A stretch of 62,052 nt of DNA, filler included, from Dugesia japonica (lineage: Eukaryota), in assembly GCA_001938525.1 (NCBI GenBank). It is 6 parts of 6 records of this genome, joined end to end, with 100 filler letters (N's around TTAATTAATTAA, not from the genome) between each part and the next. Parts side by side here need not be neighbours in the genome. Positions count along the whole stretch, not along the records: positions 29,199 to 42,642 come from MQRL01588633.1; 5 more parts are not named here. One strand, written 5' to 3'. Positions within the stretch are counted from its first letter, which is position 1, and every line of letters starts with the position of its first letter. Position numbers and translations under genes: made by a program. This document shows positions 29,099 through 57,031 of the stretch, piece by piece. Under the pieces are notes generated by a model that made no database searches, was not told the origin of the DNA, and saw nothing but the letters and a program-made list of their open reading frames with translations.

Positions 29099-29198
29099 NN
29101 NNNNNNNNNNNNNNNNNNNNNNNNNNNNNNNNNNNNNNNNNNTTAATTAATTAANNNNNNNNNNNNNNNNNNNNNNNNNNNNNNNNNNNNNNNNNNNN
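29099..29198. other. Artificial scaffold linker
   Basis: 44 N + TTAATTAATTAA + 44 N. Confidence 0.97.
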
Positions 29199-30173
29199 AT
29201 ATTTATCAGTAAAGGAAATAAAAGATGCCAGACCAGAGGTCGATAAACTGGATGTAAAAATAGCTACATATTCCAATAATAAAATTGATTTTATCTATCA
29301 TGAAATTCTAAGACAAGTAGATAGAATATATCAAGAAAGAATGATGAAAAATTGCAAAATTAAGCGGGAGTTGTTAAGAGCAAAAATGGCAATGGTAGTC
29401 ACAAATCCGGATTTAGTAGCTCCACTTTTGTTCGAAGAAAGAGGAACATTTGGAAGAATAGTGGGAGAAACTTTAGTGAGTTTTAAATGTAAACCAGTAG
29501 CTGTTACNNNNNNNNNNNNNNNNNNNNNNNNNNNNNNNNNNNNNNNNNNNNNNNNNNNNNNNNNNNNNNNNNNNNNNNNNNNNNNNAGAATTTTAACAGA
29601 TAAACATTATCAACCAAAAGTAATTGAAAAATGTAGTAATATCCTTGATCCTATGTACAAGCTAAATTAGGAAGTATGGATAACAGTGTCAGACAGGAAG
29701 ACAGCACCAACCCCACTAATGATGGAAATGATAGAGGTCGGTAGAACAACAGAATTGGAAAGGATAGATAATATGGCATTTATACAATTAATGATATTGA
29801 GAAGGATCGGAAACATGTTTTTCCAATACAAAGAGAGAAAATAATATCAATTATGGTCGATAAAGTAGCAAGAGGAAGTAATGGAGACGACGTAAATTTT
29901 GAATCATTATTACATGCAGATCATTTTAAAAGGGCAATGCGCAATTTCGTAGATAGATTTTTGGGGGGAATGCAATGGTTTGGTAATATATTCTCATGTA
30001 TTTTGTTCGGGTGGTATGTCTTGACATTTTTAAAATTAGCAGGTCATCAAATACTTTCTCTGAGACAACTACATGCAGTTTTCGGTTACATATGGAAATT
30101 GGGAGCATGTTTCTGCCCATTTATTGCAAAACACATGATTGTGCAAAATCACAGTGAAAAAATAAAGAATTAA
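29199..30173 (+). pseudogene. Class III-type (chuvirus G / gB-like) envelope glycoprotein, C-terminal half
   Basis: NNKIDFIY...RIY....NC..KR.L....P......G......GE.L....C.PV.V...RIL......C....P.Y....W pattern followed by a TM (FGNIFSCILFGWYVLTFL). Confidence 0.75.
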
Positions 30174-30203
30174 GAAAAGCATCGAGGCGTATATACAATA
30201 AAT

Positions 30204-33200
30204 ATGGAGGATGAGCAAAAGTTAAAAAAATTAACTAATGATAAATCATCAGAGACAGAATATAAACTATTTAAACAAGAAAATATTGTATTAGAACAAA
30301 TAAAGATAGATGATTTAACACAATATAAATATCAAAAGAATTACTCAATGTCAGTCATAGATTCAGATAATAATATACACACAACCGATATTATAATAAA
30401 TGGAATTAGTATACCTTCGTTAATAGATACAGGAACAGTATACTCCATAATAAAGGAATCGTGGTTAAATAAAGCACAAAGACAAAAAATAAAAAATTAT
30501 AAACCAGAAGGTATAAAATCATTCACGGGGCATATAATAAAAACAAAAGGCATAATTGAATGTACTGTCTTAATTGAACAAGAAATTGTGACCCATCCAT
30601 TTAGAGTGATGGAAAATGGAACACAGAATTGTATTTTAGGTATGGACTTTCTGGCAAGATTAAAATGGTACGTCATTGATTTGCAAGATAGCACACTGAA
30701 AATGGTGACACCAATACCAGTGCAAGGGGAAAGTAATGTGATATGTGCAGCAGAGTTGATAACAGTAGAACGTTGTAGTGAATGTATAATGCCCATAAAT
30801 ACAGAAATACAAAATAACAAGTCATAAATTTTTTTACCAAATCAGAAATTGATAGAAAAACATAATTTATCAATACTGTCTGGATGTGTAAAGCCAAGAA
30901 AAGGAATAATACCGATGAGAATAGCGAATTACAATAATTACGATGTGACAATTCAAAAAAACACAAAGTTAGGGAAGTTATTTAAAAATGGGAAAAAATA
31001 TGAAATATATGAAATTGTAATTGAAGAACAACAGAAGAGAGTGAACTTACAAGGGCAGAGTAAAAAATCAGTAAAAGAAGAGTGTAATGAATTTCTCGAA
31101 TTTATAATGGAAAAACAAGAGAAAATGAATAAAACAAGTAATAAAGAATTAATAAAACAAAAACAAACAAAATATTATGAGAAAGCAAAAATAACAAATA
31201 AAGATCTCACAATAAATCAGCGACAACAACTACAGAAACTATTGGACAAATATGAAGATGCATTCGCTAAACATGAGTTTGATATGGGAGGAACAAACAT
31301 TATAAAACATATAATCGATACAGGTAATGCAAGACCAATAAAACAGCGACCATATGTAGCACCATATGCGTTAAGACCAGAAATCAAAAGACAAGTTGCG
31401 GAACAAAAAGCGAATGGAATCATACGAGATAGTTTCTCTCAATGGGCATCGCCAATAGTACCAGTTAAAAAGAAAGACGGAGAAATTAGAATGTGCATTG
31501 ATTATAGAAAACTTAATGAAGTCACAAAAAAAGATACACACCCCTTTCCAAAGATACACGAGCAATTCAATAAATTAATGAATGCAAAATACTTTGCAAG
31601 TTTGGATACTAACAAAGGATACAATGTAATCCCAGTACAAGAAGAAGATCGAGAGAAAACAGCATTTTGTACTGATGATGGATTATAGGAATTTGTCAGA
31701 TTACCGTTTGGGTTATGTAACGCACCAGCTACATTTCAAAGGTTAATGAACACAGTGTTAACAGGTGTCGAACATGTAGTAGTGTATATGGATGATATTC
31801 TCATAGCATCGGAAACATTTGAACAACATTTGATTAACATAGAAAATGTATTGTCAAGAATTAGAAAAGCGAATATTAAGTTAAAACCCACAAAATGGAA
31901 GTGGGCAGAGGAAAGTGTGTGACTTCACTAGTCACAAGATTTTCCAGTGCCAAAGAGTGTACAACAATTACAAGGATTTAATGGACTAGTGGGATATTAT
32001 CGTAGATTCATACAAGATTTTGCAAAGATATCAGCACCATTGGTAGAGCTAACCAAAGGCATGAAAACGAAAGGTGAAAGTAAAAGTGTAATGATTGAGG
32101 AAGAATTAGATGAAAAATCAAAGAAGCCTCAGAAAAAATGGGGCCCAAAACAACAAGAGGCTTTCGAGACATTAAAACTACGATTGCTAACATCTCCAAT
32201 ATTAAAATATCCTGATTTCACAAAACAATTCATTGTGATGACGATAGCAAGTGGGTATGCTATGGGAGCAATGCTCGGTCAAGAAGAGGAGAAAAATAAA
32301 GATTATGTAATTGCATATGCTAGCAGAATGTTGAAAGGAGCAGAGACAAGGTATTCAACAATCGAAAAAGAATGTTTAGCCATCATATTTGCGTTAAAAC
32401 AATTTAGACCGTTTATATATGGAACAGAAATAATCATCCGAACAGATCATAAACCTTTAGAGGGTCTATGAAAGAATAAAGATGCACCCAGTAGAATACT
32501 GAAGTGGGCAATGAAAATTCAAGATATGAGCATACGTATTATATATAAGCCAGGTAGAGCAAACAAAAACGCCGATGCATTATCAAGAATCCCAGAAGTG
32601 AATATAGTGGAAATGATGTCAATTGTGATGACAGGAACCAACCCAAAAACGTTCTTAGAGGAACAAAAAAAATATAAACAAATACAAGGGATTAAAAAAA
32701 TGATGCTTCAAGAAAAGAATACTAAATATAATATGTATAAGAATTTACTTATGTACAATAATTTAGGGGAAAATCTGATGGTTATACCAGACTCTCTAAA
32801 ACAATTATTATTGTTACAATATCATGATGGAGCACTCGGAGGACACCTATCTAGCAAAAAAACCACGTCAAAGTTGCTACAAAAATATTATTGGGATAAT
32901 ATTAAAGAGGATGTAAAGAAATGGTGTCAAGCATGTAGTACCTGTGCCACAAGAAAGAATACAGGAACAAAAACCAAAGTTCCTCTACAACCAATGCCAA
33001 TACCCAGTTCACCAATGGAAACATGCGCAATGGATTTTTTGTGCAAATTACCAACGACTATAAAAGGCAATAAACATATATTAGTATTTATTCACTATTT
33101 CACAAAGTGGGCAGATGCATTTCCTACAAAAGATGAAACAGCAGATACAGTAGCAAAGTTATTAGTTGAAAAAATAATATACAAATATGGAGCGCCAAGA

Positions 33201-33890
33201 AAGTTACTATCCGATAGGGGAAAGAGTTTCCTCAATGAAGTCATACAAAGAGTGACAAATATGTTTGATATTAAAAAAATAAATACGACGGCATATCACC
33301 CATAAACTGATGGGTTAGTTGAAATATTCAACAGTACACTATGTAATAGATTGGCAGTTTTCGTAAATAAACATCAAAATGATTGGGATTTGTTTATTAA
33401 GCCAACACTATTTATACATAATACAACTGAAAACGAGGCCACGGGATATTCACCATTTTATCTTATGTATCTCAGACAAAATCATATGCCAATAGATATA
33501 ACATTTNNNNNNNNNNNNNNNNNNNNNNNNNNNNNNNNNNNNNNNNNNNNNNNNNNNNNNNNNNNNNNNNNNNNNNNNNNNNNNNNNNNNNNNNNNNNNN
33601 NNNNNNNNNNNNNNNNNNNNNNNNNNNNNNNGATTATTATTAAAAGATCATAATTTTAAAGTAGGAGATAAGGTGAGGATAAAAACACCAATCACACAGA
33701 AAGGATTAACCAATAAATTAGCAAGACCTTATAAGGTCCATATGAAGTAGTAAAAACAACTCCTACAAATTTACACATAATAAAGAACAAAAGGGACGAT
33801 CCCATGATTGTGGCAGTTAACCGATGCAAAATAGCAGAAGCAGAAATTGAACCTAAAAAACAACACAAATATAACCTTCGATCAGGATCA
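30204..33890 (+). pseudogene. Gypsy pol: aspartic protease, dUTPase-fold-like spacer, RT, RNase H, integrase with GPY/F domain
   Basis: LIDTG, ILGMDFL, WASP, RMCIDYRKLN, YMDD (31785), YASR, TDHKPL, N..ADALSR, H..GH...C..C, SDRG, TTAYHP.TDGLVE, GPYEV; all ORF pieces share one frame. Confidence 0.97.
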
Positions 33891-34745
33891 CAAAGTGCAT
33901 TACCACTCTTTACACTAACTCTGTTGACATTATTAACAGTGGGAGCAGCTCAACTTGAAAAGGAAGAGAGTTTTGGCTATATAAAAGAGATAATCTATTC
34001 AGATAGAATCATACTCAGGGCACCTGACAACATAGCGATCGTTGCAGTGATAAAAGATAAACCAGTCACATATGATATATCAAGCAAATACATCAAGAGA
34101 AAAGAACGTATTCTTCTACCATGGAAAGTGTATAAAGGGATATGCCAGATAGAGATAGAAGGATTAGAGGCCAATAAAAAATATAGAATTTGGATAAGTT
34201 ATCAGATAAAAGGAATCAAATCAGTAAAACAATATGTAGTCACTACGTTACAAGAATAACGAATTATATCACAAAAATAGTTATTGAATATTACCGCAAT
34301 ATTACAAAGAAAGTTGAGTACAACCAGACCACCAAAGAAGACGGAATTTATAACTAGCCCTACGAGACAAAAGAAGTTAGGTACAATAAAACAAAACATA
34401 GAAACAATTAATCATTACAATACACTAATATATCATAATGTTGCAGTGAAAACGAACAAAAATCCTAAGAGAAACAGACAGACTTGGATTAATAGCATAA
34501 GTCCAGATCATCAACAATTGCGACATAAAATTCTACAAATGTGGATTACAACCACAAGAAAACCATTTGACATGAAAATATTATATCACCCTTTTTCAAT
34601 ATTGGGAACAATNGCATTACTCTTCCTCCTCGCTTTCATAATTACATTAATCCAAATACATAAGCGATATAGGTGGAAGAGGCAGCGTTATCGGCGTCGT
34701 AATGCCCCACAAATTCCAAATTATGTCCAATGGACATTGGTCTGA
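33891..34745 (+). pseudogene. Type I membrane protein fused in frame after integrase (signal peptide, FN3-like domain, Thr-rich stalk, TM, basic tail)
   Basis: ALPLFTLTLLTLLTVGAA; IEGLEANKKYRIWI; STTRPP...TSPT; ILGT.ALLFLLAFIITLIQI; KRYRWKR...WTLV; two internal stops. Confidence 0.65.
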
Positions 34746-35191
34746 ACACCCTACACAAAATATGTTAAAATTCTATATCATTATTTATATATATTTTTAT
34801 TTATATTATAAGCTACTAACACATGTGGCAGTATGTNNNNNNNNNNNNNNNNNNNNNNNNNNNNNNNNNNNNNNNNNNNNNNNNNNGCGTTATCGGCGTC
34901 GTAATGCCCCACAAATTCCAAATTATGTCCAATGGACATTGGTCTGAACACCCTACACAATATATGTTAAAATTCTATATCATTATTTATATATATTTTT
35001 ATTTATATTATAAGCTACTAACACATGTGGCAGTGTGTAGGACTAGCCAGTCCTTAAAATAAAAAGTTAATCATTACATCGTTTTAGAAACAACAACTCA
35101 AACAAAGATATCAGAAACAAGCCAGATCAATCAATACATTATAGTATATAACAGACAAATCACGAAATACCATTCATTTACATACTACATA

Positions 35192-37258
35192 ATGCAGTCA
35201 AAGCAGCACGCTACACACAATCAACAGTCGAACAATAATGTACAGAGAACACAACAATATGAACAAGCAAGTCATAGCATAAAAAGCAAAGAGAACAGGA
35301 GTAACGAATTAATACAGTCAATGCACAATAAATCTACACACCCGGCAAACATCCCTTCATCTTCATCCTTAATCACAAAAGGTGTCGCGCATTTTTATAA
35401 TCATATACCAAGTTTTGTGTTCAAAGATAAAGATAGTGAACCTAGAATAGAAGTATTTAACGGTGTAAATACAATCCCGAATGTCTTAAAAAACAACAAT
35501 TTTGATAAAGATATCATTATGATACGATTTCAAAAGGCTCAGAGAAACTCAATACAACAATTGATAGGATAAATAGAAATAGAGAAAGATCCACAAGAAG
35601 CACTGTTAAATGGCAAACGAATACTTAAAGAAATTAGATTACATGTTACAAAGACTCCTATTATATTCTCGTACAGAAAAAGAGATATCCATATCTTGGC
35701 AAACAAAACACTGATATTAGACGGAAAAAAGATCCAGGAGTGAACAACATAAAAATTGCGATACAGGACATTCCAGCCGTTCTTTGTGTAGAATTAATTT
35801 ATCATGAACGCATTCCTGTACCTTTTCCTACATATACTGCTATAAAAGGACATTGCCCAGTGGACTATATAGACCTAATTAACCATACATCGTCCTTAAA
35901 ATATGCAATTTTAACAGAACCTGATATTGAACAATTAATAGTATATGTAGATATGATAACAGTCAAAGATTCATATTTCAATTTGCAAGTGGTAGAATTA
36001 ACTATATTAAATAATAAAGGAGAAATTATATTGGATGAAACCCTATGTCCACGAGAAAGGATAATACATTTTGGCACGCCAAGTACAGGGTATACCCATG
36101 AAAAGATAAAGAAATATAAAGATGCATACCCTACAATTTTGAAGGCACGACAGCTGCTGTATGGAAAAATACTTGTCGGCTTTGAATTAGGAAATAAATT
36201 AACGAGTTTACATATTGACCACAGACATGTTATTGGTATCAAGGATCTTACGGAAGACAGATGGCGTAGGATGTATACTCCAAATATCAAAAAGTTAAAA
36301 TTGATCAACCTTATGGAGGTAGTATTCAAATCCATGAAGCAGGATAGAGTAATCGAGGATATGTTAGAAACAGCGAGAGAAAAAGCACAAGAATCGACAG
36401 CCAAACGGATAACATTTATAAAGATTACATATAAACAGTTAATTACTCAGCAACCGTGGAAAGATTCTATATACCCTGGTAGTAATCCGGGTATGAAAGG
36501 TATTGAAAATAATGAGCCAAAATTGCCAGAAGTCATGATAAGAGAAAAGGAGAAACCAGATAGTGTGGTATGGATATTGGACTCTGAACAAGATTCGGAT
36601 ATAAAAGATAATGAAGAAGAGACAGATGGAAGTACAGATAGTAGATACGATGAGAATAATGGCATAGATACAGAGTGGGACGAGGAAGACTTACCAGAAG
36701 AACTCAGACCGCATAACGACACTGGGGAACAGCGGAGACTGATAGAGGATATAATACGACGAAATCCTAGGATGGTACAGACAGATATGGACGCATCTGA
36801 AGGTGATGATGTTCCAGAACGGGCAATGTCACAAAAAGAACAAAGGGAGGCTGAAAGTGAAACTGAATACTGGTCAGGTGAAGAGGTAGAAGATCTTAGT
36901 TTAGATCAAGTACGATGAGATTGTGAAGGAATACCGCATCATATGGATAGCGACAGTGATGACCTCGGTCCTGAGCCACAAATTGATATATATGACCCTA
37001 GTACGGACACATTCAATTTGAATAAAGCCCTCAAAATAGATAAGTGGGATGGAAATATTAGCAGTGCAAAAAATAACTTTGAAAAGGATATCGGGTAAAG
37101 ATATGCAACTACAATTTGGAAAGAAACGCATTAGATTGACAACCATTAAAGAAGGCAGTAAGAAGACATAAACGTTTGTCGTTGAAAATGTTTTGCTAAA
37201 CACCATTGCGGTAACAGAAAAGGGTGCCACACTTACACTATCCATTAACAATGATTAA
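35192..37258 (+). pseudogene. Accessory ORF with a REX4/ISG20-like DEDDh exonuclease fold (catalytic residues altered) and an acidic region
   Basis: LTILNNKGEIILD...P...I..F.T..TG, LLYGKILVG..L.N.L..L, IKDLT; continuity across stops and shifts from 35192 is inferred. Confidence 0.75.
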
Positions 37259-37334
37259 AATATATATTATCTGTATTTAGTATTGCTATTATAGTTTTCT
37301 CTTTATACTTATTATTGACATTATATATTTTAGA

Positions 37335-38597
37335 ATAAATTGCAATTTTCAATCCCAAAAACTATTTTTATTAAACAAAGCACACATACCACTATATGAA
37401 AAACACAGAAATCTCACAAACCCTTACAACTACTGCTGGCAAGATATTGCATTAATTACCTTGTTCACCGAAGAAAATCCCGTATGTCCCCTATGTTATG
37501 ATCAACCTGTGGTACCCCGAATAGCACCTTGTGGACACTTCTTTTGCTTCGCTTGCATAAACCAGTATTTTCATGTTACCAACTCTGATAACGTACCTTG
37601 TCCTTCTTGTAGGACACAGAAAATATATGACACTAAACTCAAACGCGCCAGTTTTTGTTACATTAATAAGCCTCGTGTCGAACAGTTTATTTCATTTACT
37701 CTCCTGATTAAAATGCCTGATAATAATAGCACACGCTTTGCTCATCTTACTCCTGTAATTCAGCAGATAGATGTCCCTAGTTGTTGCAACCCCATTAGCA
37801 AGTTCCAAGAAATCTGCATCCAATCCGATTCTTTATCAATAAAACAGATTAACAATGATATTAGAACAATTAGTTATGGCCAGTTAGCTGCAGCGCAAAA
37901 AAAGAAATTGATAAAAATACTTAAAACAGAAAGAACACATTTCACATTTAATATTAAAATTCTTGATAAGTTGGAACACGAAAAGTCGTTTACGGATAGA
38001 ACCCGGAATACAGACAAGTTTAATCTTCTCGTCCATCACCCTACATTATCGAACGTAAGATTATTTTATCAAACAGCTATCTATTCACGAACTTTTCTCA
38101 ATAGTGTGCAGACGAAACGACTTTTGAAAAATCAATCGGAAGATATTCCTTTTCGCATGGGTGGTTTCATCACGGTCATAGAAGTAGCTATTGATCACCA
38201 TTTAGATATAGATAAAATATATCATTTCCTGCCTAATCAAACGAAAATAAGACTCGTGACGATCCGAATGGACACTTCCTCCACATCAAGACATTTTGGT
38301 CCTTTGAGTTATCTATACATTCATGCTAATATAACAAGGCTAGCTATGAAGAGGCGTAATAAAGAATTGCAAGACATCGCAAACGAGAGTAAAGCTAGGA
38401 AGGGTCGACCAGCCCGGATACTCACCCATCGTGCCAATACAAACAAAATAGATATTTTTTCTAGAAGTCCTTCTGTTTCCCCATCCTTCATAAATCTAGA
38501 AGATAATTTCCCAGCGTGTATTTTTAATGAACCTTGTTCCGATAACACCATTTCATCATTCCAAGATATTGCCTGTCCTTATTTCGCGTTTACCTAA
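37335..38597 (+). CDS. RNF10/Mag2-like C3HC4 RING E3 ligase
   Basis: NCNF...P....W.DI......CPLC...P..PRIAPCGH.FCFACI.QY......CP.C; the frame is open back to a TTTTAG acceptor at 37333. Confidence 0.75.
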   Translation: MNCNFQSQKLFLLNKAHIPLYEKHRNLTNPYNYCWQDIALITLFTEENPVCPLCYDQPVVPRIAPCGHFFCFACINQYFHVTNSDNVPCPSCRTQKIYDTKLKRASFCYINKPRVEQFISFTLLIKMPDNNSTRFAHLTPVIQQIDVPSCCNPISKFQEICIQSDSLSIKQINNDIRTISYGQLAAAQKKKLIKILKTERTHFTFNIKILDKLEHEKSFTDRTRNTDKFNLLVHHPTLSNVRLFYQTAIYSRTFLNSVQTKRLLKNQSEDIPFRMGGFITVIEVAIDHHLDIDKIYHFLPNQTKIRLVTIRMDTSSTSRHFGPLSYLYIHANITRLAMKRRNKELQDIANESKARKGRPARILTHRANTNKIDIFSRSPSVSPSFINLEDNFPACIFNEPCSDNTISSFQDIACPYFAFT

Positions 38598-38618
38598 AGA
38601 TGACGGAGCAACTTTTTC

Positions 38619-39496
38619 GGAGAAGGAACGTTTGTTGAGGTTTGAATAGTTTAAACAGACAAGCAACACACAATAAACATAGCAGAGCAAAATTTATACA
38701 ACACACAATAAACATAGCAGAGCAAATTTCCTAAATCAATTAGTTAACTCAAGTCCTCAAATCAATATCAATCCCTGAAAAATCAATCCAACTCAAATGT
38801 GTTGACATTATATTTGAAAAAATGTGCTGACATTATATTTTATTGTGACATCATATTTTATTTGGAATTTCAATTTTATTGTGACATTATATTGTATTGT
38901 GACATTATATTTTATTTGGAATTTCATGAAAATTTGGATTATTCGAAAATATATTGATTTTATTGTATAAACAATTTAGACTATTAGTTAATGTTAAGAA
39001 TTTTATTGTATAAACAATTATGGCATATAATTTATTTTACGACGAATTAATAATCATGGAAATTTTTTATGAAAAATTTTATTGGATATAATTTATTTTA
39101 TGTAAACTAATAATCATGTAAGTAATTTATATGGAAAATTTTATGTAAACACTAGGTCAATGCATGAAGGCCTAGTGTGAATTTTACCATAAATACTGAC
39201 GTATGTCAGTTTATTGTTCAGAAAAAATTTAATTTAGAGAACCTATCTCTTTCTCTACTTTAAAATTAAACTGAGCGATATAAGTGTAATTATCCTAATC
39301 AAAATGTCAATTATAGAAGTATGAGTTGTGTTTTTATTTTAAATGTGGAAATTTACATAAATCAGTTATTTATATTTTTGCTTAAACTATATTCTTATAT
39401 AATAGTTGTATTTACACACACACAAAGGAAAATTTTGAGTCTCCCAAAAAAATTCATTATTGAACATTATACCTTATTGTTTTTAAATTCTTACCA
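38619..39496 (+). repeat. Polypurine tract and putative 3' LTR
   Basis: GGAGAAGGAA then TGTTGAG at 38633; internal direct repeats; CATAAATA plus TCAGT initiator-like site near 39190; right end uncertain. Confidence 0.6.
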
Positions 39497-39506
39497 TAAA
39501 ATCTTT

Positions 39507-39997
39507 TGTTGAGTTAGATACCCAACAGTATTAATGCTGTTATCGTTTATAGTGCATTCTTATCTTAAACGCTCGGTGGCTCCGACCAAAAAGGTGCGGG
39601 AATCTAGCGAAGATCTCGAAATGAAATGGAATCTGTAAAAGCTGGCCAAACGCCGTTGGGAAACCGACACTTTTACGGCAGAAAGCAAAGTTAAACGTTA
39701 CAAGTCGAAACGTATAGCCTTTAGGAAGGAAAGAATGTGTAAAACACAAATAGAATCGTTCACGGAAATCATCTGGTCCCTCTATGACCGTGAGAATAAA
39801 CTTGTGCATGACATTCTTGAATTAAGGAGAATACCGCTTGAGCCACTTATGATAGATAAGGGTACTCAAACCTCGAGCCACTGAGCTCTACCTCTGTTGT
39901 TCATTTGTAAATAAAATACTCCTTGAATTTGTACTAATTTATTTTGTCTTGACTTGATGGCTTTATTGGCATAATTGAAATTATGATATATTCAATA
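39507..39997 (+). repeat. Possible second (solo) LTR, or the distal part of the same LTR
   Basis: TGTTGA...TCAATA ends; AATAAA near 39910; no clear TSD. Confidence 0.4.
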
Positions 39998-40594
39998 AAA
40001 TTTTTATCTTAACGGTTATTGTTTGTTTAGTGCCTCGTATCCAACTACCTACTATTCTGCGCAAATGTCATCGTTTAATACAGAAGTTACTTTTGGAAAG
40101 GCATAATAAACGCCAAAATAAATGCGCCCTCTTAAGAAACCTCACACAAAGAAATCGATTGATCAAAAAACTCGATGTGATATTTAAAAAACAAGGCGAT
40201 TTGGCCGAACAGGCAAAACAGATCCTGAATCATAAAATACAGTTTCTGCAGCAATATATAAATGTGGATTCGCTGGAATAGCGAGGATGATGATGCCACT
40301 TTTTTTTGATTCGAATGTATTCTAAAATTGTTTTTGATAAATTAAAAGAAAAGGAAATTGTTGAACCCGAAACAAAGATATACGTGGGTGCACCTCAAAT
40401 AAATGTTGGAGATCAACCGCTCTATACCGAACATCTAAATAGGGACTTTAGATTAAATTCTTGAAAGGGTCCCCTGAGGGCTGTTTTTCCCAGCCGTACT
40501 TTTTCTACCACAAACTTAGGTGGGATCCCAACACTTTTTTTATTTCTGAAAACTGGGTATTTCACACAAACATTATTATTAGAAAAATAATTAT

Positions 40595-40706
40595 TAATAT
40601 TATTGCTATTATAATCCAAATTATTGCGAGAATAATTGTTGGACTTAAAAATTGATCGCATTTGAGATTTCATCAAAATAAAGAAAAAGCTTCGATCAAA
40701 ATAAAA
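40595..40706 (-). repeat. Hairpin-repeat family copy
   Basis: Reverse complement of 9863-9959. Confidence 0.8.
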
Positions 40707-40749
40707 TGTATTTTTATGGGAATTTTCGACTGTTGTCTTCTTCGGGTAT

Positions 40750-40935
40750 ATGATCAGCCCAGACTTAGCTCCATCAGATAATCACTTATTTCGGTCAATG
40801 AGTCATTTTCTGATTGGCAAGAAATTTAATTCAGTAACACATATCAAAAGTGGAGTCATTGAGTTTTTGCAGTCCAAGCCACCAGAATGGTATCAGAAAG
40901 GAATCCAAAATTTAGCTGATAGATGGTTAAATACC
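40750..40935 (+). pseudogene. mariner transposase C-terminus
   Basis: SPDLAPSD.HLFRSM...Y..GI..L..RW. Confidence 0.9.
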
Positions 40936-41064
40936 NNNNNNNNNNNNNNNNNNNNNNNNNNNNNNNNNNNNNNNNNNNNNNNNNNNNNNNNNNNNNNNNN
41001 NNNNNNNNNNNNNNNNNNNNNNNNNNNNNNNNNNNNNNNNNNNNNNNNNNNNNNNNNNNNNNNN

Positions 41065-42400
41065 GATGAATTTAGTAGGTGATAAAGTGTATTTAGTGAG
41101 AATTACGAAAGTATATTATAGGGATTAAATGTGATAGAGTTCATTAGATTTAATAGGGATATTAGACTCGTTTGATTCATTGCATGTATTATGTGGTACT
41201 TGGTTTATGATATGTATTGGTTGAATTTGATGAATAAGATGTAATAAATAGATTGACTTTATTGAACAAACTAACCAATCAGATTAAATGATTTAAGTAA
41301 ACTAATAATCGATTGTATTAAATAAATGACATAGCTGAATAAATTTTATTGACCAATTAAGTGAGTGGATCATAATTACATGCATATTGAGTGTTTGTAT
41401 AATTATAGATTGAATGGTAATACTGATCGTATATTAGATTTTAGATTTAGATCTGTTTACATTTGTGTATATGTATTAGATTCATGAAATGTATTGAATT
41501 TATTAGATGATTCGGTTAAATATATGTATTAAGTTATTGAGTTCATTGATTTTATATAGTTTATTGAGTGTATTAATTTAAATGAATACATTGAGGGACT
41601 CTATTAATATGTTCATAGTAAATATAGTGTGATTAATAAATTAAATGATGAATTGATAAAGTTGAACTAAATATATATTAAGTAAGTTGAAGTCGAATTA
41701 ATTGGTTTGAAATGATAATTTATCAGGTTTAAGCAGATTGAGTGTAAAATTTATGAGTTAAAAGAGTAAATTGACGATTTTAATAGTGTAGTTTGAGAGA
41801 TTGAATTAAGTAAATGGAGTATGCGAATGAAATATTTTCTATACTTCTATTTAATTTCTGAAAAATATTATTCACTTCTATATGTTTGTTAAATCTGAAC
41901 TAATAAGTTATCAGAATGGAATTAACTGGGATTAAATTCTAATGCACCGGGTCACAATATTTCAACAAATTGTTTATTGAGTGTATTTATTTTAATCGGT
42001 ATAACAGGCTTACAAAATATAATTATTGAATAAATTAATTGTATAATGGTTAGTTGTATTTGAAATCTGGTTATATTTGTTTGAAATTACCGTAAACTTA
42101 TAATGTTGGTACCTATATTCTTGTAAAAATTTAGATTTATGTAGAATTGTATAAAATGAGTAAATATATATTGTATTGAAACTTAATATTTATTTTAATG
42201 AAATCTACATTAATCATTGATTGATTATTTTAGATAATAGAAAATCTTATTTTCTATGACGACTCGTATATATTCTGAAATAAAACCTGTATAATCTGTA
42301 TATTTTGAGATGAATCATGTATTTCCACGACGAAGTGTCTATTTCCTATGATGAAGTGACTATTCTTTATCTATGGATATTAAAATTCACACAATTGGCA
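41065..42400 (-). pseudogene. Possible heavily decayed leucine-rich-repeat gene
   Basis: Scattered LNLKSN, INLFNN and IL.PGAL-like words on the minus strand; strong strand bias; no long ORF. Confidence 0.25.
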
Positions 42401-42642
42401 ATGATTATTATACAGTTGACTCTTATTCTCGTATTGTACTTATATTGAACCTATATTGTACTTATATTACGCATGTATGAGTAAAAATTCATAGCTGAAT
42501 AGATTAAATCGGTTTGAATGACTAATTGTTGTTTCTGATGGATTAATTGATTATAATTTAGATGTTTTTCATAGAATCAATTAATACCTATATGAATAAC
42601 GCATATTTTGTACAAAGAAAATGTTACATTTTAGCAAACTTA

Positions 42643-52014: not shown

Positions 52015-52754
52015 TTTCAACAAATCAAAATCATTCATGATGAAATGGATCATCTCAGTAGATACATCCGTGCGCACAAAACCACCTCCCCCCGCTGGAA
52101 AAGTGCTATGATTTTTTGGTTTGATTTTTTGTATAATTTGTTGGTTTAAAATTTTTGAATATTGATTGGTCAAAAAGTTGTATTGAAAATATTTTCTTTT
52201 TGGAAATTTTATTTGTCGAAATTTTGGTCAGAAAAGTGGAATTTTGAATTTTTGGTTTTTAATTTTTTTTCAGTCAATTTTTATTGTATAGTTTCAAATT
52301 TAGTATCGCCAGTTAAGACATACGATTGTTCCATAATATATATCTATAAAATTGAATTTTGAAATTTTTGCATCCATGTGGCGAATTTTTCAAATTTTAT
52401 CAAGCAAATTGAATAAATCTGAAGTAATGTTATTCACATATCCTTGAAAATACAAATTTCTAAGCCCTAGTTTCACTAGTTTTCCTACCACGAACACATT
52501 TGCACATAAAGGGTCATATTTTACAAGTATTAGAGTAGGAAATAACTCTGGTTCGAACCAACAGTTGACTATTCTTGCTAATTTATACAAATTTATTAAA
52601 ACTCCCATATTTACGACAATTGTTAGTAACTGTAATTGTAAATTTTTTATAAAATAGGGGTTCACATTATGCGGTTCTAATGGTTTCTTACATCCCATTA
52701 TTCTTGATTTTATTGACCTAGAGTAAATAATTGAATATTTATCCCTTTTGACTT

Positions 52755-52945
52755 TGTTAGGTAAATCTTCAATTGTTAATTCATTTTGCAAATCAGAATT
52801 CATATTGTTAGACATTTTTTATTTTACTACTACAAACTATATTTCATAAGATAAATAATTATGAAATACAAGTATTTAAATATTAATATTTAGATGTCTC
52901 AATTCCTAATGGGTGAGATTATTAATTAATAATTATTTTCTCATA
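52755..52945 (-). repeat. 3' LTR
   Basis: Near-identical to 56024-56214; preceded by AAAAAAGGGGA on the minus strand. Confidence 0.93.
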
Positions 52946-52995
52946 TCCCCTTTTTTAAGAAACTTCCTAAGTTTTTCCCCATTTCTTTCTAAACG

Positions 52996-54820
52996 CTAGC
53001 CATTGTCTCCTTGTATTGCACACCACCTTTCGTGAATTTTTTCAATTATTCGATAAGGTCCTTCAAATCTGCCTTGACTTTTATTTCTTGTTTCTACATT
53101 GATGAGTACAAAATTGCCCACTTTAAATTCTCTTTTAGTAATCACGTCTGAAATGGTTTTTTTAGTTTTATCTGACACGTCTGACTTGTATAAGTTTATT
53201 TGGTAATTTTCCTTCTAAAAAACGAAGTAAATCTTCTTCCGTACAAGTAATGTTTGAAATGCAGACAGAAATAATAAACAGCCAATAAATCCTTTCGTGT
53301 AATGTAGTATCCTTTTTCATGACTCGTTATTGAGTGTGATCCATAGGCAACAAATCTTTCTCTTCCTTCTTTATCTCTCTGTGACAATACTGCTCAATTG
53401 TATCGAAACTTGCATCTGTATCTAATATAAATTCTTTGTTTATGTCCGGACAACACAATATTGGTACAGTCCTTAGAGTTGTTTTCAGTCCATTCTAATT
53501 TCTTGTTGCTTGGTCCGCTACACAATTGCTCTAATATCTTTAACTTTCTTGCGTAGTTTTCTATAACCTTATTGTAATAATTACAAATTCCCAAGAAACC
53601 TCGTAACTTCTTCACACAGTTAGATTTGCCAAATGTTCTTATTGCTTCTATTTCATACACCATCCTGGTAATTATGTGTCCAAGAAACTTGATTTCGTTT
53701 TGAAGAAACTCACACTTCTCTGGATTTAATCTTAGACCAGCCTACATTATTTCCATCAATACTTTAACAATGACTTCATAGTGTTGATCTTTATTGTTCG
53801 TAAATATCAGAATGTCATCAAGATAAACTATGGCTCCACTGATTCCGCCAACCACTTTTGTCATCATCTCCTGAAATGTCCCTGGTGCCGCTGCGATGCT
53901 AAATGGTATTCTATTAAAACAATATTGTCCGTATTTCGTTGAAAACGCTGTTTTTTCTTGAGATTCTTCTTTGAGGTATACCTGATAGTATGTATTTCTT
54001 AAATCTATTGAACTGAAATATTTGGAGACATCTTACTTTTGCAGCATTTCATCGACATTAGGCATCGGAAAGGCTTGTCCTTTTGTTACTGCATTCAACT
54101 GTCTGAAATCCAAACATATTCTTATGTCCTTCTTTTTTTCCAAACACAGATCAATGGAATATTCCATGGATAGTTGCATTTTCGGATAATATTATTCTCA
54201 AAAAGGTTTTGGATAGCTTTTTCAATTTTAGATTCTAAGTTCATTGATTGTCTGTACGGTTTTACATTGATTGGTTCAACACTTGTGATTATTTTGTGTC
54301 TTTTCACATTTGTACGTTTTACATCCAATTTAACTGCTATAGAAACATATTTTTTACTTTCAATTATTTTCAATAACTGTTGGTCCTCTGTAATCTACAA
54401 ACTATTTAAACCTCTTGTCAATCGCTCTCCATTTTTAATTTTTCTTCCGAATTTCGCTTCAATATTACAAATTTTCGACTTTTTCATCCGTTTTGCTATC
54501 GATCTTTCGTATAAGCTGATATCTAAAAATCTTCTGCATATCTATTCCTCCTATCTGATCTGGTGTCACTCTTTTAGGAACTAAAAAAGTAATCTCTTAG
54601 CAGGCTTCATCAATTATCACTCCAGTTCTAACTTTCCCAACAATTTCAAGTGTTCTAATGTTTCCACAACGCAATCTTTCATGACTCATTTCTAAATTTA
54701 CTTCTCGTAATTTAATAAAACAAATCAAACTCATCACGTTAATTTGAGCCCCTGTAGCTAATAGACATTCGACTTTATCTCCTTGAATTGAGACTGTAAC
54801 ACTAGGTTTGCCTTGCAATT
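52996..54820 (-). pseudogene. Gypsy pol remnant
   Basis: CLLATGAQ (catalytic D lost), PWN.P...V.K, CLDFRQLN, KTAFST, YLDD, LRGFLG..NYY, HF.HYLYG, FEGPY. Confidence 0.9.
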
Positions 54821-55179
54821 TATGGTACGAAATATTTATTTTCTTTTTTGCTTCAACTGTTTCAATCCATTCAACTTTTCTACCATCTGTAAAATTTCAC
54901 CTCTTTAAGAAACTGTATGCTTTTTCTGTAACTTTTCCTATATCATCCCACTTTTCGACCCCTTAAGGATATTTACTCACTTCATTTAACAATGGATGGC
55001 TCCAACCAACTCCTCTACTGGTGGAGTCTGCCTTTTGGGTACTGCCTTTTGGAATCACTTTCATATACTTTCTCATATTCATCGTCTGTACTGACATCTT
55101 CATCTTTAATCGCATGTATTCGGTTATATCGGTTTCTTGATCTTTCTGCATTCATAAATTTATCATTGGTTCTTTTCCT

Positions 55180-56084
55180 TTTAAAATTTGTGTAGCACTA
55201 TTCTGCTCTATTTCCACTATTACAACATCGTTTACACCTCACGTCTTGACATAACCGTCTTATTTGGGCAACGTTTCCACTACCAAAACATTTTGTTGGT
55301 TTTTTATTTTGACAATCTCGACTTATATGTCCTGTTTTATGACAACTCCAGCACTCTACCACTTTTTTTTCGGACAACTTGCTTTAGTATGACCGATCTT
55401 ATGATATGACCAACATTCGATATTTTGTTTTTCCTTTCTTTGCTCCACATGTCTATTCAGTGTACGATTTACAGGTTTCTGATAATTTCGGTTTGTAACT
55501 CTCGCGTAACTTCTAACTTCATCAACTCGATCTCTGTTTTTCTCTACTCGATCTACTAACGTCATTGTTTCTTCAATTTCTTCTATATNNNNNNNNNNNN
55601 NNNNNNNNNNNNNNNNNNNNNNNNNNNNNNNNNNNNNNTTATCTGAACAATATACTAGCATCTTTGTAACCATTTTTTCTTCAGTAAAATCTTTATTTGT
55701 AAATAATCTTTCCACTAAATATTTTACATTTCTAAAATGAAATTAAATCTTTTCATTTCCACGCCTGTAGTTAACCAAATTTTGAAAATCTTTCTCTTTC
55801 TCAAATGCCATACGCAAACGAGCCTGAAAATCTTCAACTTTTTTCAACTTCATTGCATATTCTTCCAACAAATCGTCATCTAGCAAACAAGAGACTAATC
55901 TCTCCTATTTCATGTTTCATCTGAAATATGTTTTTAACTTCAAAATACAATTCACACCTTTTGATAAATTTCTAAATATCATCTCCTCTGCAGTAATAGA
56001 ATCGGTATTTACCGCTCCCACAATGTTAGGTAAATCTTCAATTGTTAATTCATTTTGCAAATCAGAATTCATATTGTTGGAAAT
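55180..56084 (-). pseudogene. Gypsy gag with multiple CCHC knuckles, frame starting inside the 5' LTR
   Basis: ECW..HK.GH....C, ECW.CHK.GH....C and C..CG...H....C knuckles. Confidence 0.8.
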
Positions 56085-56214
56085 TTTTTATTTTAATACT
56101 ACAAACTATATTTCATAAGATAAATAATTATGAAATACAAGTATTTAAATATTAATATTTAGATTTGTCAATTCCTAATGGGTGAGATTATTAATTAATA
56201 ATTATTTCCTCAAA
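56024..56214 (-). repeat. 5' LTR
   Basis: Near-identical to 52755-52945; followed on + by TSD GACTT. Confidence 0.93.
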
Positions 56215-56413: not shown

Positions 56414-57031
56414 ATGGAGAAATTAAGAAATGATGCAGTCTATCACATTGTTGGACCCAGTGGTAGTGGTAAAATTTTGTTTATATGTCAATTATTGAAA
56501 TCAAAGTTATTCAAGTCAAAATTTTAAAACATATACTGACATAGGGGTGCAGATGAGGAACATGGACTGACTAGAATTTTGTAATATTAAAATGAAAATT
56601 TTAAATGGTTTTGATTCTAATTGGAGCAAAAGATTAAGACCAGTTGATGTTATTGTTATTGATGATCTGTATCAGGAGGCAAATAAAGAAAAGGATTTCA
56701 ATAATTTATTCACAAAAATATCGAGACATTGTAATGTGACTGTTATATTTATTACTCAAAATCTATTTCATCAAGGAGGTAGTCATAGAACCCGAAATTT
56801 AAACGTACATAATTTGGTTCTATTCAAAAATCTTAGAGTTAAAACTGTTGTTGATTTTCTAGCAAGATAAGCATATCCAAATAACAGAAAATTGTTTATT
56901 GAATCATTTCAAGATGCACAAAAAAACCACATGGATTTCTTGACTTTACACAACAATGTCCAGATGATTATAGAGTGAGAACAGATTTATTCAACCTTAA
57001 TGGTATCGCAGTATATATACAAAACAGGTAA
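56414..57031 (+). pseudogene. Polinton packaging ATPase
   Basis: IVGPSGSGK, VIVIDDL, FTK.SRH.NVTVIFITQNLF, RT..LN....VLFKN.R. Confidence 0.92.

Follow-up and report, generated by a model that had tools for sequence, protein, structure and literature searches.

Why should a planarian Ty3/gypsy retrotransposon be followed, on its own strand, by an open reading frame (ORF) resembling the RNF10/Mag2 ubiquitin ligases, and what might such a gene do there? The question arises from 62,052 nt of Dugesia japonica DNA (assembly GCA_001938525.1), hereafter the window, which is divided into pieces by 100-nt linkers (N44-TTAATTAATTAA-N44) at 9763, 19932, 29099, 42643 and 51915; the locus lies in the piece from 29,199 to 42,642 (MQRL01588633.1). 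The explanation that best accounts for the locus as a whole, held tentatively, is an element-captured RNF10 derivative that is spliced, active and still acting on the ribosome; we infer the capture, the splicing, the ligase activity and the ribosomal target. Elsewhere in the window lie a separate, decayed Ty3/gypsy element on the minus strand (52755-56212) with a 189-nt LTR pair 97% identical, a TBP-like fragment (52393-52818, minus; PF00352, E 2e-5) that adjoins or is interrupted by the LTR of that element, and Polinton/Maverick-like pieces at 117-2533 (+), 13799-14812 (-) and 56571-56867 (+), whose content includes an integrase with a PLA2-like domain, an A32 ATPase and a protein-primed DNA polymerase B.

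The retrotransposon upstream of the ORF begins, as far as it is visible, with what remains of a broken gB-type (class III) envelope gene, its 3' part (29200..30173, +; PF24664 Monjiviricetes_fusion, E 2.9e-14 and 2.1e-14 on two pieces), the env 5' part and gag being missing at the assembly break 29099-29198. Directly behind it comes a Ty3/gypsy pol (30174..33884, +; Pfam) with protease, RT, RNase H and integrase in the PR-RT-RH-IN order of the Metaviridae, and the same arrangement, with a gB-type env immediately ahead of the protease region, occurs in P0176 and P0181. The pol frame carries six in-frame stops in 30174-33506 (30825, 31686, 31920, 31929, 32469 and 33303), and its best full-coverage relatives are 43-48% identical. 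A stop-broken extension follows the integrase (33735..34745, +), with two hydrophobic segments that look signal-like and transmembrane-like in the sequence. Relatives with such an extension that were examined are P0157, P0158, P0160, P0161, P0162, P0164 and P0169; the C-terminal extensions of P0157, P0158 and P0160-P0162 look alike by eye, with BLAST similarity in only the first ~50 residues. Four close pol relatives have added aspartyl-protease domains in the extension, and two of them ankyrin repeats too, pointing to a cargo-rich lineage. The RNF10-type profile found no match in 120 pol-relative polyproteins, and PF00097 is not among their listed domains. Beyond pol, a first accessory ORF (35192..37098, +) is broken by stops at 35570 and 36916 and by a frame change near 35600-35640. 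Pfam gave no match on it; PDB comparison places within it a DEDD-exonuclease-like domain of ISG20/SDN1 type (~35938-36297, +; SDN1 E 2.9e-4, ISG20 E 0.012), followed by a long acidic tail. This domain does not conserve the positions of the first catalytic Asp, and its catalytic acidic residues look lost.

The ORF at issue (37335..38597, +) comprises 420 intronless codons within a stop-to-stop frame of 438 codons (37281-38597), a frame whose probability of arising by chance at its own base composition is ~2e-13. It has no ATG where its homologues start; as an earlier, sequence-only reading had stated, none lies 5' of the RING, the first in-frame ATG being at 37713, 3' of it. The RING itself (37485..37610, +; Pfam PF00097, E 1.7e-7) is of the C3HC4 type, and that reading was right that all its zinc ligands, eight of eight, are intact; an Arg comes next, at the linchpin position. 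An upstream segment, NC.F...P....W..I, had also been ascribed to RNF10. Its Trp holds, lying 16 residues N-terminal of Cys1, a spacing shared by 80 of 106 homologues among the matches listed, but INCNF, the candidate for NC.F, was rejected on spacing: it lies 49 residues from Cys1, where the family motif [AS]N[CYF].F has a median of 40 (53 homologues) and only two of the 53 reach so far. The column of that motif is occupied in the ORF by LLNKAH, 37 residues from Cys1. A second RNF10-family module (LFYQ ... HFLP; 38061..38270, +) is diverged, has lost its DG motif and is weak when taken alone (E 0.043). An AlphaFold2 model of the protein (mean pLDDT 61, pTM 0.51) is confident in the RING, where 10-residue blocks reach pLDDT 87-93, and in the linker helices. 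It is true, as had been remarked, that the ~420-codon frame is free of stops where pol is not, but this is weak evidence in a frame that has no start codon: at the lesion density of the remaining element, a run of 420 codons would escape a stop with a probability of 0.08-0.13, so that a stop-free ORF is compatible with decay elsewhere in the element, and intactness was rejected as a sign of selection.

Descent of the ORF from RNF10/Mag2 is supported, and the homology probably reaches into the second conserved module as well. A phmmer search of 1.84 billion representatives returned 720 matches at E <= 0.001; the homologue counts given here come from the best 150. The top three are short proteins of 319-445 aa, P0001 (E 1e-33), P0002 and P0003; the remaining matches listed are mostly longer members of one conserved, widespread eukaryotic family. 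Against a profile of 66 cellular-type matches, the post-RING part of the ORF scores 23.7 bits, compared with at most 3.9 for 200 shuffles; the profile was made from this query's own matches, which renders the RING-side score partly circular, and the second module alone scores 5.8 bits. HHalign of the four short forms (the ORF with P0001-P0003) against 35 cellular-type sequences aligns 291 columns at a probability of 99.95% (E 1e-38), and is weak for the C-terminal half of the ORF alone (1.2%, E 0.043). Among 154 sequences (the ORF and 153 others), 107 contain both modules and 28 just the N module, while 19 have neither in full. The extended N module is matched by 135 of the 154, and on this ground, together with the 107 that match both, an unrelated RING was rejected; the homology search that had been proposed places the best matches in an RNF10-type family.

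The name RNF10 itself comes from Atlas clusters. It was reached there indirectly, via the homologue P0002, the ORF protein itself being absent from the Atlas: the P0002 model (residues 1-325) aligns with clusters auto-named RNF10 at TM 0.61 and 0.59, and in this sense the original assignment to an RNF10/Mag2-like ligase stands. Other routes were uninformative. PDB sequence and Foldseek searches with the ORF protein yielded generic RINGs, with no RNF10/Mag2 chain among the matches, and a viral structure library yielded nothing for the model at E <= 0.001. A word-seeded homologue search gave no match among 1342 candidates with the ORF and only four among 2547 with a four-sequence profile, none of them named RNF10, and Rfam gave no match. 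The ORF resembles RNF10 of animals and Mag2 of yeast in the spacing of Trp-16, in its C3HC4 RING, in the strand and helix after the RING and, as aligned in the family profile, in a FYQ...HLP second module, all in the original order. It differs in length (420 aa against a median of ~667 aa), in being intronless, in an identity of only ~20%, in its linchpin Arg, in the absence of the N-terminal NHLL.F region, the DG motif and the basic tail, and, in this copy, in having no start codon. Because neither the NHLL.F region nor the basic tail is present in any of the four short forms, the ORF is, judged by its residues, a derivative and not the host RNF10 orthologue.

These short forms appear to constitute a natural group. 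P0001-P0003 (22-29% identical) each begin with Met within three residues of the codon-37335 column, and their Cys1 is residue 51, 54 and 49, respectively, compared with 51 in the ORF. In a tree of 109 rows, where the ORF row fills 156 of 311 columns, the four form one group with SH-aLRT support of 96, and this is 82 in a second tree of 57 selected rows under a mixture model, in which long branches meet. Neither tree resolves a donor lineage. Common derived features support the grouping. A basic residue, Arg or Lys, follows the last RING Cys in four of four short forms and in none of 103 cellular-type homologues among the matches listed (two of 105 were dropped as unparsed). Conversely, among the cellular-type matches listed, the Q..DG motif is found in 79 of 105, the NHLL.F region in 44 of 103 and the basic C-terminal tail in 51 of 105, and none of the four short forms has any of them. 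Each shared feature may represent one event, and a Fisher P for the linchpin contrast is for this reason not meaningful. All eight zinc ligands are kept in the four, and the loop-1 hydrophobic position is a Ser in P0003. The Atlas cluster nearest by features to P0001 and P0002 holds 186 RING proteins of ~399 aa, mostly from arthropods, which may be further short forms or fragments of RNF10.

What would such a protein do? RNF10 and Mag2 mono-ubiquitinate uS3 on stalled ribosomes (PMC11604940, PMC13075771); overexpression of RNF10 lowers 40S abundance (PMC12008924), and that of Mag2 in yeast reduces ribosome quality control (RQC) and raises full-length product (PMC12700985). Given these effects of excess enzyme, a constitutive ligase encoded by an element could keep RQC away from a very long polyprotein, or reduce translation in the host. 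A cationic linchpin positions the donor ubiquitin, and the addition of Arg to the Tyr-bearing XIAP raised its activity (PMC12326332). The basic linchpin and the loss of cellular motifs in the short forms suggest an active, deregulated ligase, not a decoy. The proposal is therefore of the following kind. A Ty3/gypsy (Metaviridae) element of gag-env-pol layout would have acquired the ORF as an accessory gene in the distant past, from an RNF10/Mag2 mRNA of its host, and only the folded core of RING, flanking strands, helical linker and second module would have been retained. Expression would be by splicing, from a subgenomic RNA with its acceptor one base ahead of the gene's own start. The copy in the window would be a decayed one without its start. 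Because the basic linchpin has been gained and the cellular N- and C-terminal regions lost, working copies would encode an E3 ligase that is active and probably deregulated. This ligase would most likely still dock on 40S subunits and ubiquitinate uS3/uS5, diverting stalled or slow ribosomes from RQC, to which the long polyprotein and mRNA of the element would otherwise fall victim; an alternative outcome would be a lowering of host translation. That the product is an active ligase is probable; that the ribosome is still its target is a decidedly more tentative proposition, given a divergence to ~20% identity and the loss of conserved cellular motifs. The broadest form of the proposal, in which an envelope-carrying Ty3/gypsy lineage has long carried a linchpin-tuned, RNF10-derived ligase and rewrites the host ribosome ubiquitin code for its own translation, is on balance doubtful. 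Against the explanation as a whole stand the lack of an LTR pair and of the element's 5' end in the window, an AT skew unlike that of pol, the weakness of the second module alone, the loss of Q..DG, the support of 82 under the mixture model, where long branches meet, the empty word-seeded search with the ORF, and the absence of an obvious stall signal, pol being A-rich (43.5%) with a longest A run of 8. A rationale based on poly(A) stalling is unsupported.

The main rival keeps the gene in the element and the ligase active, and alters the target: the RNF10 scaffold would ubiquitinate one of the host's restriction factors, such as a protein of small-RNA silencing, and so send it for degradation, in the manner of viral RING ligases. 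The absence of Q..DG from all four short forms means that substrate binding may have changed, and the long branches, the loss of this motif and of the terminal regions, and the acquisition of a linchpin favourable to chain building are all in keeping with retargeting. So is the neighbouring, inactive-looking DEDD domain, which is reminiscent of the piRNA factors of nuclease origin treated in PMC5408684. On the other hand, the whole RNF10 core has been kept, in order (291 columns) and in fold, which is more than a generic RING degrader needs, and no candidate target is in evidence. Such a defence-directed ligase is regarded as unlikely, ahead of the two other rivals, non-membership in the element and then a decoy.

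The element-borne RNF10 derivative preferred here would also need a route of expression. The sequence-only reading had pointed to a T-rich TTTTAG acceptor at 37333, right after which similarity begins, and the signal withstands scrutiny: among 636 AG sites in 29199-38640, AG 37332-37333 ranks first by T fraction of the preceding 50 nt (0.58), a rank it shares with a duplicated site that precedes the other accessory ORF. The T-rich tract (37284..37333, +) contains TTGAC (37315-37319), 13 nt upstream of the AG, and TTTTAG (37328-37333), and the first whole codon past it begins at 37335, one base after the acceptor. Comparable signals precede the first accessory ORF (35016..35087, +), namely TACTAAC (35016), a branch-point consensus, TTAAT (35067) and TTTTAG (35082-35087); of the three TTTTAG copies in the element, two head an accessory ORF. 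Expression of the ORF from a spliced RNA is thus likely, the acceptor being a signal of sequence. Less can be said for the comparison with an internal exon, in which the start codon would come from an upstream element exon, such as the gag start, and the present copy would still be translatable. In Drosophila gypsy, the env start is supplied by an upstream exon, and here a strong acceptor stands one base ahead of a frame that has neither an in-frame ATG nor a stop. However, three homologues have Met within three residues of that column, and the donor region would lie outside the window, which together make an internal exon, a question of expression only, distinctly unlikely. Because P0001-P0003 have that Met, the ORF is probably a complete gene with its own start just past the acceptor, and this start is broken in the window copy.

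Whether the ORF belongs to the element at all turns on boundaries that are incompletely preserved. No LTR pair was found in the window by repeat search or self-BLAST, and 38601-42640 is without a partner there. The sequence-only reading had made this the last gene, with the polypurine tract (PPT) 21 bp past its stop. A purine tract does lie there, 21 nt beyond the stop (GGAGAAGGAA, 38619..38628, +, with a T run ahead), but a second candidate (39723..39735, +) is directly followed by TGTGT; with two candidates, the second before TGTG, and no LTR pair in the window, neither the identity of the PPT nor the position of last gene is established. Both purine tracts lie downstream of the ORF, and only seven PPT-like tracts occur on the plus strand outside the element, which makes them modest evidence. 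Between them are tandem repeats (38664..39145, +; 35 nt x2, 18 nt x4.9 and 61 nt x2.1) that would be U3 enhancer-like or 3' untranslated repeats. ACACA / CAAACA at 40564..40572 (+), inverted partners of either candidate start, could mark the 3' end of an LTR, a post hoc and weak assignment. Coding-like fragments at 39639-39884 and 39979-40440 (+), past the first PPT candidate, have an element-like GC content and no Pfam or convincing PDB match. Further on, 40705-40936 (+) gives no Pfam match and is taken by us to resemble the C-terminus of a mariner transposase; it probably bounds the element on the right.

If the ORF were instead outside the element, it would be a paralogue or retrocopy of the host RNF10 that evolves fast, or the cargo of another mobile element, lying downstream by chance. 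The missing LTR pair would fit this, as would a composition unlike that of pol (AT skew 0.06 against 0.28), a stop-free frame among neighbours with many stops, the three small N gaps within the element upstream of the ORF, the coding-like fragments that follow at 39639-40440 and the mostly arthropod, 186-protein cluster of ~399 aa nearest by features. Nevertheless, the ORF is intronless, lies on the same strand and the same scaffold piece as env-pol, 236 nt past the previous accessory ORF, and has a GC content (0.36) that is element-like (0.32-0.36; flanks 0.22-0.25). Acceptor signals match at both accessory ORFs, a PPT-like tract and repeats come just downstream, and the start codon is missing. 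The last gap before the ORF, of 50 N, is surrounded by a 152-nt duplicate, 99% identical (34685-35038), which is probably an assembly overlap. Non-membership is judged improbable. We infer membership and the position of last gene, and membership is likely rather than firm because the element's 5' end was lost at the assembly break and P0001-P0003 are known here as proteins alone; that the ORF is an element-borne RNF10 derivative is nonetheless probable. A dominant-negative decoy, which would hold the RNF10 site on the ribosome or soak up E2 with no transfer of ubiquitin, would suit a form shorter than the cellular one (420 against a median of 667 aa) and the loop-1 Ser of P0003, but is very improbable when all eight ligands, at 22-29% identity, and the basic linchpin are kept in four of four short forms.

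Were the preferred reading of a captured, ribosome-directed ligase true, a mobile element would encode an RQC E3 ligase, and capture from the RNF10 family would tie the fitness of a retroelement to the ribosome ubiquitin code, which has only recently been described as a pathway of the host. Such elements, if the RNF10 copy is indeed element-borne, may tamper with host translation quality control. The short forms would also be natural truncations, a minimal RNF10 that maps the ribosome-binding core: the parts kept (the RING and second module) and those changed (the linchpin and DG) yield predictions on how RNF10 recognises the 40S subunit and on why the cellular enzyme has no basic linchpin and mainly mono-ubiquitinates.

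Among the literature matches listed, as judged by title and abstract opening, there is no report of RNF10 cargo in a retrotransposon; subscription papers, Repbase, figures and supplements might hold one. Nematode elements with Upf1-like cargo were reportedly described by Sacco et al. in 2022. A GAG-ENV-POL order is reported for errantiviruses of Nematoda, Bryozoa and Platyhelminthes (PMC13524379), and the window element is like these in having a gB-type env directly ahead of PR-RT-RH-IN; unlike them, it has two accessory ORFs past pol, and its gag is not visible. As words, RING, E3 ligase and exonuclease are absent from the main text of that paper, and RING from seven of its text supplements. 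The Burro giant gypsy elements of planarians have env between gag and pol; their cargo is tied to ubiquitination, apoptosis and ribosome maturation, and they contain tandem repeats and are known from decayed copies too (PMC6431247). Their cargo, largely within the polyprotein, comprises AIR1, Smc, MATH, BIR, ankyrin, BCL2, SUMO-like, midasin-like and dUTPase domains. The window element shares the env ahead of pol, the tandem repeats and the decay. It differs in that the Burro cargo listed there does not include RNF10 and no Burro cargo type appears in its own visible part, where BIR, BCL2, MATH, ankyrin and dUTPase domains were not found, the region upstream of env being missing. The Juno and Vesta LTR retrotransposons of bdelloid rotifers, whose paper does not contain the word RING, have an extra ORF3 past pol, including DEDD exonucleases, typically on spliced messages (PMC5408684). 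The window element is like them in its extra ORFs past pol, one of them DEDD-exonuclease-like; the Juno/Vesta exonuclease, in contrast, is DEDDy with intact catalytic residues and is not ISG20/SDN-like. Ubiquitin-related and exonuclease cargo and spliced ORF3s thus have precedent in LTR elements (PMC6431247, PMC5408684), and host-gene cargo in such elements is already known, whereas the RNF10 cargo and its remodelling look new.
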